From UHGV virus genome UHGV-0045952: DNA of 16,743 nt. One strand, written 5' to 3'. Below are positions 11,203 through 12,505 of this stretch, piece after piece. This stretch comes from a virus. The notes beneath the pieces are model-generated. The model searched no databases and had not been told where the DNA came from. It worked only from the letters and a program-made list of their open reading frames with translations. Every line of letters begins with the position of its first letter. The first letter of the stretch is position 1. A program made the position numbers and the translations under genes.

Positions 11203-11369
11203 TTGACCAAAATCGAAGTTACGAACAAGAAAGCGTCGAGCGAGCTTTAACGTGCGCTAACTGCGGTCAGAAGCTGCATGTGCTGGAAGTTCACGTGTGT
11301 GAGCTCTGCTGTGCAGAACTGATGAGCGATCCGAATAGCTCAATGTACGAGGAAGAAGACGATGGCTAA
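11199..11369 (+). CDS. ninF: NinF-like protein
   Basis: Track ORF 11157..11369 trimmed to the GTG at 11199 (GTGA overlap with the ninE stop); [34 protein letters not shown]...EEEDDG parallels lambda NinF as I recall it. Confidence 0.55.
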
Positions 11370-11928
11370 ACCAGCGCGAAGACGATGTAACCGTAAAAGA
11401 GAAGATTTAACTGTTAAAAGGATATTTGAGTTACTAAGTTTCGATAAATCTACCGGGGTATTTAGATGGAAAGTTCCCACTCAGGGAAGGATATCATTAA
11501 ATAGTATTGCTGGAACTTTTGATTCCAACGGTTATTCAATGATCATGATAGATGGGCGTAGATATAAAACTCACGTCTTAGTTTTTTACATAACTCATAA
11601 TCGTTGGCCTGCTGGTCAAATTGACCACGTTAATGGAATTAGGACCGACAATAGGCCAGAAAATTTAAGAGAATGCCTGCCAATAGAAAATTCAAGAAAT
11701 ATAAGGATCCGAAAGAATAGCAAATCAGGTTGCAGAGGAGTTACTTGGCACAAACGACAGAAAAAATGGAATGTTAGGCTAGGTTTCCATGGCAAGAGTA
11801 AACACTTCGGATGCTTTGATGATCTGGAGTTAGCGGTACTAGTTGCTGAAGAAGCCCGAGATAAGTATTACGGTGATTTTTCCGGCAACGAAAGGAGCAC
11901 TTATGCGAATCTATCGAAGGAAATGTAA
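11362..11928 (+). CDS. HNH-AP2 homing-endonuclease-like gene, copy 2, embedded in the 5' end of ninG
   Basis: 188 aa; HNH motif region [33 protein letters not shown] and AP2-like segment [39 protein letters not shown]-rich relative to flanks. Its first codons MAKPARRRC resemble the ninG N-terminus. Confidence 0.8.
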
Positions 11929-12505
11929 ATGTTGCAATGAATGGTTTATACCAAAATATCAAAATCAATATTGGTGTAATGAGATTTGTGGAACCAAGAT
12001 AGCACTCGAACGACGAAGCAAAGAACGCGAAAAAGCGGAAAAGGAAGTAGAGAAGAAACGACGACGAGAGGAGCAGAAACAGAAAGATAAACTTAAGATT
12101 CGAAAACTCGCCTTAAAGCCCCGCAGTTACTGGATTAAACAAGCCCAACAAGCCGTAAACGCCTTCATCAGAGAAAGAGACCGCGACTTACCATGTATCT
12201 CGTGCGGAACGCTCACGTCTGCTCAGTGGGATGCCGGGCATTACCGGACAACTGCTGCGGCACCTCAACTCCGATTTGATGAACGCAATATTCACAAGCA
12301 ATGCGTGGTGTGCAACCAGCATAAAAGCGGAAATCTCGTTCCGTATCGCGTCGAACTGATTAACCGGATCGGGCAGGAAGCAGTAGACGAAATCGAATCA
12401 AACCATAACCGCCATCGCTGGACTGTCGAAGAGTGCAAGGCGATCAAGGCAGAGTACCAACAGAAACTCAAAGACCTGCGAAATAGCAGAAGTGAGGCCG
12501 CATGA
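11903..12505 (+). CDS. ninG: NinG (Rap-like recombination endonuclease)
   Basis: Track ORF 11843..12505 trimmed to the ATG at 11903 (AAAGGAG 5 nt upstream). From CNEWF onward the sequence (...[25 protein letters not shown]...RNSRSEAA) closely parallels lambda NinG as I recall it. Confidence 0.85.

Follow-up and report, generated by a model that had tools for sequence, protein, structure and literature searches.

UHGV virus genome UHGV-0045952 (16,743 nucleotides [nt], referred to in its full length as the window) is the early-right region of a lambdoid prophage in which the gene for an HNH endonuclease begins where ninG (rap) begins in lambda, and a second open reading frame (ORF) encoding NinG follows directly behind it. 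The question raised by this locus is how a nuclease gene entered the 5' end of another gene and left both apparently readable. The arrangement is, with high confidence, a cassette that has replaced 64 nt of ninG, captured the ninG start codon, and left a chimeric ninG. A broader reading, favored with moderate confidence, is that a free-standing homing endonuclease cassette invaded the 5' end of a lambda-type ninG and is active in homing. The features concerned are the following.

11199..11369, + strand: ninF (Pfam NinF); its stop codon TAA at 11367-11369 overlaps the HNH ATG
11362..11390, + strand: native lambda-type ninG 5' stub, with identity to lambda through 11390
11362..11928, + strand: HNH endonuclease ORF, 188 amino acids (aa) (Pfam HNH_3, phrog_99)
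11391..11986, + strand: inserted block, 596 nt in place of 64 nt of lambda-type ninG (lambda codons 11-32), from BLAST and alignment against lambda
11891..11897, + strand: Shine-Dalgarno sequence AAAGGAG of the ninG restart, read from the sequence, with a 5-nt spacer to ATG 11903
11900..11986, + strand: AT-rich (28% GC) substitute ninG 5' segment, which keeps the four N-terminal Cys of lambda and is apparently separable from the HNH body
11903..12505, + strand: predicted chimeric ninG ORF, 200 aa (Pfam NinG, 6e-85; phrog_171, 1e-120)
11987..12505, + strand: lambda-type rest of ninG, 98.1% identical to lambda (10 differences/518 nt)

Lambda matches the window at 11027-11390 (96% identity) and again at 11987-13347 (97%), as determined by BLAST and alignment. 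Between these flanks lie 596 nt in the window versus 64 nt in lambda, the latter being the ninG segment AAACGATGAATGCC...CTCCAGAG. Because 596 nt stand for 64 lambda nt, the event is a replacement rather than a pure insertion. An initial annotation of this DNA had proposed insertion of an HNH gene in the 5' end of ninG with translation of ninG preserved; the insertion and the restart stand, but a simple insertion does not. The alignment that it suggested, with lambda ninF-ninG and with HNH-free relatives, maps the insertion, and uninterrupted alleles with both flanks exist in lambda and in E. coli.

At the left end, ATG 11362 of the HNH ORF overlaps the ninF TAA at 11367-11369 (ATGGCTAA), and the first nine residues of the HNH ORF, MAKPARRRC, are residues 2 to 10 of lambda NinG. 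Both the overlap and the likeness to the lambda NinG N-terminus, at the place where ninG starts in lambda, had been pointed out, and the likeness is confirmed by the lambda NinG sequence. The native stub contains the start codon, codons 2 to 9, and 2 nt of codon 10, and it now forms the HNH N-terminus. At the right end, NinG coding restarts as initially described, at ATG 11903 with AAAGGAG and within the final 26 nt of the HNH ORF, a stretch that both ORFs share in different frames. The intervening sequence is indeed AT rich, with a GC fraction of 0.33 to 0.42 in the insert compared with about 0.5 in the flanks. The earlier coordinates also hold, except that their end at 11930 falls 2 nt beyond the HNH stop.

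The final 85 nt of the block re-encode NinG residues 1 to 28 in diverged form, and RR(R/K)C codons are therefore present twice, once in the native stub at the HNH N-terminus and once as a diverged copy at the restart. The GC content of this substitute segment is 28%, compared with 49.5% in the lambda equivalent, and both synonymous and nonsynonymous differences from lambda are present. Allowing for a 2-residue deletion, C8, C11, C25, and C29 of this NinG correspond to C10, C15, C29, and C33 of the lambda protein, and the Pfam NinG match of the restart ORF covers profile positions 5 to 192 of 193. NinG (Rap) is a junction-specific endonuclease of branched DNA, and its predicted form in the window is a 200-aa chimera, with residues 1 to 28 from the substitute segment, the rest of lambda type, and the junction at 11986/11987.

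The product of the inserted ORF can be assigned from its sequence to the HNH_3 family, with the catalytic D-H...N...N motif. It matches Pfam HNH_3 at 4.4e-11, above the cutoff, and phrog_99 (“HNH endonuclease”) at 2e-71, and an alignment of 16 family members shows no variation at D88, H89, N101, L102, R103, and N110. The match to Pfam AP2 is weak (22.2 bits, under the cutoff of 33.3). A fold search returned AP2 domains (1GCC and 7ET5) with a probability of 1.0 but an expectation value (E) of only 0.1 to 0.2, and a sequence search of solved structures gave a weak AP2 match and nothing else. The top Foldseek match in the PDB is I-HmuI (1U3E; probability, 1.0; E = 5.6e-3; 106 columns), with a low TM-score of 0.37 to 0.40 and 19% identity. 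The AlphaFold2 model has a predicted local distance difference test score (pLDDT) of 87, with low values at residues 1 to 10 and 176 to 188. The nearest nonidentical relatives share ~44% identity and come from T5-like and Jersey/Chi-like lytic phages, where they carry the annotation HNH homing endonuclease. Polymorphisms in the HNH gene (10 synonymous and 12 nonsynonymous) give a ratio of nonsynonymous to synonymous polymorphism (pN/pS) of 0.32 (p = 0.013); the gene is under purifying selection and its protein is maintained.

The conserved family core comprises residues ~11 to 175, with the N-terminal 10 and the C-terminal ~13 residues outside it. Homologues begin 1 to 5 residues ahead of the position of K12 and stop a few residues past that of S174, which suggests that the nine ninG-derived N-terminal residues and the C-terminal tail are by-products of position. 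The tail results from reading the Shine-Dalgarno sequence and the beginning of ninG in a different frame, and near the N-terminus there is no in-frame ATG, GTG, or TTG besides the ATG of ninG itself. Neither a promoter nor a terminator belonging to the HNH gene was found above chance, and the same holds for a hairpin sequestering the ninG restart or any unusual RNA structure (z = 0.3). Between 9500 and 12600, the window contains no Rfam match of any kind at E values up to 1, and no intron RNA was detected. The HNH ORF shares the ninG frame at its 5' end only, being shifted by +1 at its 3' end, and ninG codons 5 to 9 are duplicated, not split. A group I or II intron or an intein is ruled out by the missing Rfam match together with this frame analysis.

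Under the homing reading, two parts would make up the cassette, an HNH_3/AP2 nuclease gene and the 85-nt AT-rich segment that stands in for the ninG 5' end and brings along a Shine-Dalgarno sequence and an ATG. Through its in-frame fusion to the start codon and first nine codons of ninG, the nuclease ORF would inherit the translational coupling of ninG to ninF, and, as it lacks both a promoter and a terminator, its transcription would be part of that of the delayed-early nin operon. When the phage grows lytically or is induced, the enzyme may nick or cut HNH-free lambda-type ninG at or near the replaced 64 nt, and repair from the occupied copy would then introduce the cassette together with short co-conversion tracts. 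Occupied alleles would be immune to cleavage owing to their diverged substitute segment. This AT-rich segment probably arrived with the cassette from an earlier, different ninG host, and it could stay behind when the HNH body is lost, as in the metagenomic contig L071 discussed below.

Population data come from the homologous core, compared across 38 different carrier haplotypes. The HNH body has a nucleotide diversity of 0.0049 and the substitute segment one of 0.0018, whereas the value for the adjoining native ninG is 0.0366; the cassette is 7- to 8-fold less diverse than native ninG, with a steep increase at its edges. Of 597 cassette sites, 22 are segregating, compared with 101 of 517 in native ninG (Fisher p = 8e-18), and the cassette appears to be younger than its flanks. 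The native ninG part of the window has 10 differences in 518 nt to HNH-free lambda, compared with 15 to 22 to other carriers. In E. coli O111:H8 08-4455, two prophages have identical cassettes (0/596 differences) next to ninG sequences with 17 differences in 519 nt, and the identical tract, 11360-12018, extends about 30 nt past each junction. These prophages (L133 and L134) encode an identical HNH protein, WP_001108084, together with different NinG proteins, and have different neighbors; polylysogens of this kind are natural before-and-after material on conversion tracts. Both ORFs are intact in 36 of the 38 haplotypes, and pN/pS among carriers is 0.19 in the native ninG part. The locus is a one-site presence/absence polymorphism in otherwise homologous alleles. 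The history of the element is unlike that of its flanks, which is compatible with homing and also with other recombination, and the population data fit what intronless homing with short co-conversion tracts would produce (framework in PMC2988022 and PMC2790892).

Of 5426 complete E. coli genomes, 538 contain the 600-nt block at ≥99% identity, at 571 places in total, where the annotation is always HNH plus NinG, and the carriers include O157:H7, O111, O26, O145, and O103 strains. The cassette is also present in the Shiga toxin 1 (Stx1) phages AU6Stx1 and SH2026Stx1, in 57 IMG/VR contigs, and in 6 metagenome contigs, and one member of the HNH protein cluster is named from Salmonella. Uninterrupted lambda-type ninF-ninG occurs in about 940 to 970 E. 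coli genomes as well as in lambda. A search for an isogenic empty/occupied pair yielded none, as the reconstructed empty site matched uninterrupted alleles but none at >97.5% identity. The gene context may be that of the window (ninE-ninF-HNH-ninG-ninH) or, in Stx phages, a 1.8-kb reverse-strand ORF and a 16-nt ninF 3' remnant followed by HNH-ninG-phosphatase. Among 53 loci, the 400-nt contexts are of at least 10 types upstream and at least 6 downstream. The context in E. coli PK8241 is ninX-ninF-HNH-IS3-ninG; here, an IS3-family element (L005, 3050-4263) lies between the Shine-Dalgarno sequence and the region of the ninG-restart ATG, at the equivalent of window ~11895-11897, and parts HNH from ninG, both of which are nonetheless called by the Prokaryotic Genome Annotation Pipeline (PGAP). 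In the IMG/VR carriers L067 and L042, a 1-nt deletion frameshifts HNH in one and ninG has a premature stop at codon 36 in the other; these could be rare degenerate copies or sequencing errors.

The window has the gene order ninB-ninE-ninF-HNH-ninG-ninH-phosphatase-Q and is virtually identical in sequence to E. coli MS 196-1 (NZ_CP146681); annotations produced by PGAP for the identical MS 196-1 record were transferred to window coordinates with a shift of +117. RefSeq has both genes, as WP_001108086 (“HNH endonuclease”) and WP_001223953 (“recombination protein NinG”), and is silent on their relation. The window contains a run of 10 N at 15554-15563, followed by ~380 nt (15564-15942) with no counterpart in MS 196-1 at this position of the alignment, and compared with NZ_CP146681, it has about 111 additional nt near 3908-4018. 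The window therefore seems to be derived from a scaffolded assembly with a gap or join.

According to the initial annotation, a related ninG with the MRIYRRK start and no HNH gene upstream would count against the insertion, and a ninG with this type of start and no HNH exists. A search with the NinG protein found P0030, 87% identical, on three metagenomic Logan contigs, L071 to L073 (SRR13494434, SRR13494312, and SRR13494323, of which the first is L071), where ninG starts with MRISRRKCKCC (MRIYRRK in the window) and HNH is absent upstream. The upstream neighbor is a 74-aa ORF, for which no Pfam match was found in L071; as in the window, it overlaps the ninG start by 26 nt, and it ends in ...EYANLPKKM (...YANLSKEM in the window HNH ORF). 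GGAG is spaced from the L071 start as in the window, and homology between L071 and the window starts at TATGCGAATCT (~11900). This indicates that the start is not a property of the HNH gene and suggests that the restart codon belongs to the 85-nt segment as a separable module. One could imagine that HNH was inserted upstream of a preexisting natural “type 2” ninG, MRI(S/Y)RRKCKCC, complete with native start, Shine-Dalgarno sequence, and overlap. The ninG of the window would then be a later recombinant (type 2 5' end, lambda-type rest, and crossover at about 11987), the stub a by-product of an illegitimate left junction, and the restart no adaptation of the endonuclease. The shared overlap, ORF ending, and GGAG spacing are all anticipated by this scenario, as is the mixture of synonymous and nonsynonymous differences from lambda, which is expected of a true homologue, and CxxC-type NinG N-termini with IPKY and YWCN do occur in other Enterobacterales (P0095 and P0079). 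However, the 85 nt look imported in L071 too, where they form a 28% GC island between an upstream ORF of 50% GC and a ninG remainder of 52% GC, and they are 93% identical between L071 and the E. coli carriers, compared with only ~80% for the rest of ninG. Furthermore, wherever the substitute segment occurs in E. coli genomes (538), IMG/VR contigs (52), and metagenome contigs (6), HNH accompanies it. A preexisting type 2 ninG is on balance an unlikely origin, though one to be taken seriously. The insertion model survives this finding, given that the 85-nt segment forms an AT-rich island in L071 as well and that the HNH N-terminus still contains the lambda-type stub. L071 is the likelier to be a derivative that kept the imported segment after loss of the nuclease, the other option being an ancestral source.

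The locus could instead be an ordinary lambdoid mosaic joint with an inert or domesticated HNH, produced by one ancient illegitimate recombination and then spread by general recombination and clonal expansion of prophages of Shiga toxin-producing E. coli (STEC), with no homing; the nuclease would serve phage competition or have no role. Lambdoid phages do swap modules at gene boundaries, and the differing upstream and downstream contexts, the empty and occupied sites within single genomes, the few degenerate copies (the L067 frameshift and a truncated P0003), and the frameshifted state of another HNH copy in the window (copy 1, described below) would all agree with such a history. It is nevertheless improbable, as general recombination would need repeated resolution within about 30 nt of each edge, where diversity rises sharply and where the coresident O111:H8 prophages share the cassette plus about 30 nt on each side within a ninG diverged by 3.3%; an inert HNH also accords poorly with a maintained protein (pN/pS of 0.32) and intact catalytic residues. 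The out-of-frame overlap of 26 nt might further suggest that NinG is not made separately, either because ninG died after the insertion or because frameshifting in the overlap yields an HNH-NinG fusion. This is very hard to reconcile with the strong Shine-Dalgarno sequence at ideal spacing, the intact ninG ORF with its full-length Pfam match and conserved Cys, the intactness of both ORFs in 36 of 38 haplotypes, the pN/pS of 0.19 in native ninG, and an overlap with neither a slippery run nor unusual RNA structure (z = 0.3), and it is given almost no weight.

Several points weigh against active homing. Cleavage, nicking, homing, and the target site are all putative, being deduced from sequence. 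Much of the pattern of low diversity and mosaic flanks could stem from ordinary homologous recombination between lambdoid prophages, combined with the heavy sampling of STEC clones. Occupied and empty lambda-type ninG often share one genome, e.g., in O157:H7 strains, which means that either many empty alleles are resistant or any drive falls well short of saturation. Searches for a donor lineage were negative, as a collection of 5.8 billion proteins holds nothing between 44% and 98% identity to the HNH protein; a scan of species-representative genomes for a donor gave a single 39% relative, in a metagenome-assembled genome of Planctomycetota. The start in L071 to L073, which occurs there without HNH, may be a natural ninG variant and not part of a mobile unit. 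As for a donor of the substitute N-terminus, the phage sequences matched by tblastn, HNH carriers aside, were at most 60% identical, a short-query protein search returned partial E. coli NinG entries only, and the full NinG query retrieved P0030 along with the more distant P0095 and P0079; none of these searches yielded a ninG that is AT rich throughout and has this N-terminus.

The window holds further HNH genes related to the one in ninG (copy 2), and the sequence ttatgcgaat had been noticed both at the ninG restart and at copy 1.

9644..10315 (approximate), + strand: HNH copy 1 cassette, 39% identical to copy 2 (empty site L009, intact copy L010)
9701..9710, + strand: ttatgcgaat, first copy, at the start codon of HNH copy 1 (ATG 9703), read from the sequence
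11901..11910, + strand: ttatgcgaat, second copy, at the ninG restart (ATG CGA AT), which fits chance and marks no boundary

Comparison with the empty site L009 places copy 1 (region 9621-10356 of the window) within a membrane ORF of 27 aa, MTIYITELVTGLLVIAGLFIWGRVNRG, located downstream of the primase gene. The copy 1 cassette begins just past codon 8 of this ORF, with an AT-rich recoded remainder of the ORF first and the HNH gene second. In O157:H7 strain 7409, where the copy 1 cassette follows a DnaB-type helicase gene, the intact 203-aa copy has a run of A7; the window has A8 at 9712-9719, so copy 1 is a frameshifted pseudogene there. Copy 1 resembles a mirror image of copy 2, with a host stub, a diverged AT-rich duplicate of a host segment, and a translationally overlapped nuclease; the duplicate is at the 3' end of the cassette for ninG and at the 5' end for the membrane ORF. 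The empty-site junctions of both have TGTAA in common, in lambda ninG as CGATGTAA/AAAC (window 11386-11391) and in L009 as GAGCT/TGTAAC/AGG (by window 9643), but this likeness is probably a coincidence because the two nucleases are only 39% identical. Both reported occurrences of ttatgcgaat are real, and there are exactly two in the window, at 9701 and 11901, but the proposal that the 10-mer marks a shared element boundary was rejected. It is internal to both elements, lying 58 nt inside that of copy 1, which ends near 9644 and 10315, and 86 nt inside the right junction of copy 2; simulated regions of the same composition share a mean of 1.2 10-mers, with a probability of 0.57 for at least one. 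The sequence ACTTATGCGA matches also at 10187, in the C-terminal coding region of copy 1.

A third HNH_3/AP2 paralogue, 39% identical to copy 2, is located in the leader region between Q and holin (window 14061-14573); no more than 16 complete E. coli genomes match its region in full, and empty sites occur as well. Three related endonuclease genes are consequently found within 5 kb of a prophage segment. In L071, a 375-aa ORF directly after ninG (3604-4731) has an HNH_3 endonuclease (30% identity to copy 2) in frame with a DUF1133/Q-antiterminator domain and is apparently another fusion of an endonuclease with a host gene in the nin/Q region. Copies 1 and 2 and this HNH-Q fusion together lead to a tentative generalization, which is doubtful at present: HNH_3/AP2 genes of temperate enterobacterial phages might be “self-patching” homing cassettes that invade the interior of coding genes without an intron or intein and carry a diverged, cleavage-immune duplicate with translation signals. 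On induction, they might convert coresident lambdoid (including Stx) prophages, and once the nuclease is lost, AT-rich “immune” footprints like the start of ninG in L071 might remain.

Free-standing endonuclease genes inside ORFs are known from T4-like phages. Friedrich and colleagues are said to have described, in 2007, an nrdA of Aeromonas phage Aeh1 that is split by mobE (“genes in pieces”) and whose protein is reportedly two reassembling polypeptides. As in ninG, a free-standing HNH gene lies inside a coding sequence and the host function is kept; unlike Aeh1, the short N-terminal piece of ninG is discarded by fusion to the nuclease, and a substitute copy takes its place. I-HmuI, the HNH nicking endonuclease of Bacillus phage SPO1, also has an N-terminal beta domain followed by the HNH motif, but it is intron encoded with a C-terminal helix-turn-helix, whereas the ninG nuclease is intronless with a predicted AP2-like C-terminal DNA-binding domain. 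The HNH proteins of T5-like and Jersey/Chi-like phages belong to the same family (PHROG 99, HNH_3 plus AP2), with 43 to 44% identity over 85% of the length, but these stand alone between phage genes, whereas the ninG lineage is a tight cluster (98 to 100%) with no intermediates.

Free-standing endonucleases of T4-like phages (seg and mob, e.g., mobE between nrdA and nrdB) perform intronless homing, with co-conversion of diverged flanks by double-strand-break repair (PMC2988022, PMC2790892), and T4 homing endonuclease ORFs overlap neighboring genes (PMC2988022). The likeness to ninG lies in a nuclease gene that has no intron or intein, is situated in a conserved DNA metabolism region, and overlaps or is coupled to the upstream gene; the counterparts in the ninG cassette are the coupling to the ninF stop, the missing promoter, and the diverged flanking segment that travels along. 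In contrast, the T4 genes are typically intergenic, whereas the ninG HNH lies inside its target ORF, uses the start codon of the target, and supplies a substitute 5' coding end; its host is a temperate lambdoid prophage, and its activity is predicted only. Start codon capture by HNH has been noted once, in gene 31 of Salmonella phage epsilon34, an in-frame EaE-HNH fusion in a P22-like phage (PMC2629481). There, too, HNH captures the start of a host gene, but the target gene and the HNH lineage are different and no restart of the host gene is reported. A literature search found no paper on the ninG cassette, which is apparently undescribed.

The architecture shows how a free-standing endonuclease gene can reside inside an ORF without a splicing element, by capture of the host start and provision of a substitute 5' end. 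For annotation, the cassette explains two N-terminal classes of NinG, and the first nine and last ~13 residues of the HNH protein are likely to be read as by-products of position. If the nuclease is active, the cassette would be a gene drive-like element among lambdoid prophages of pathogenic E. coli (O157:H7, O111, O26, O145, and Stx1 phages). It would also offer a tractable lambda-based system for homing in temperate phages, with the uninterrupted ninG of lambda, both flanks included, as a candidate recipient site. Such an element would target rap/ninG, which is part of the phage's own recombination machinery, and would contribute a directed mechanism to the mosaicism of Stx phages.

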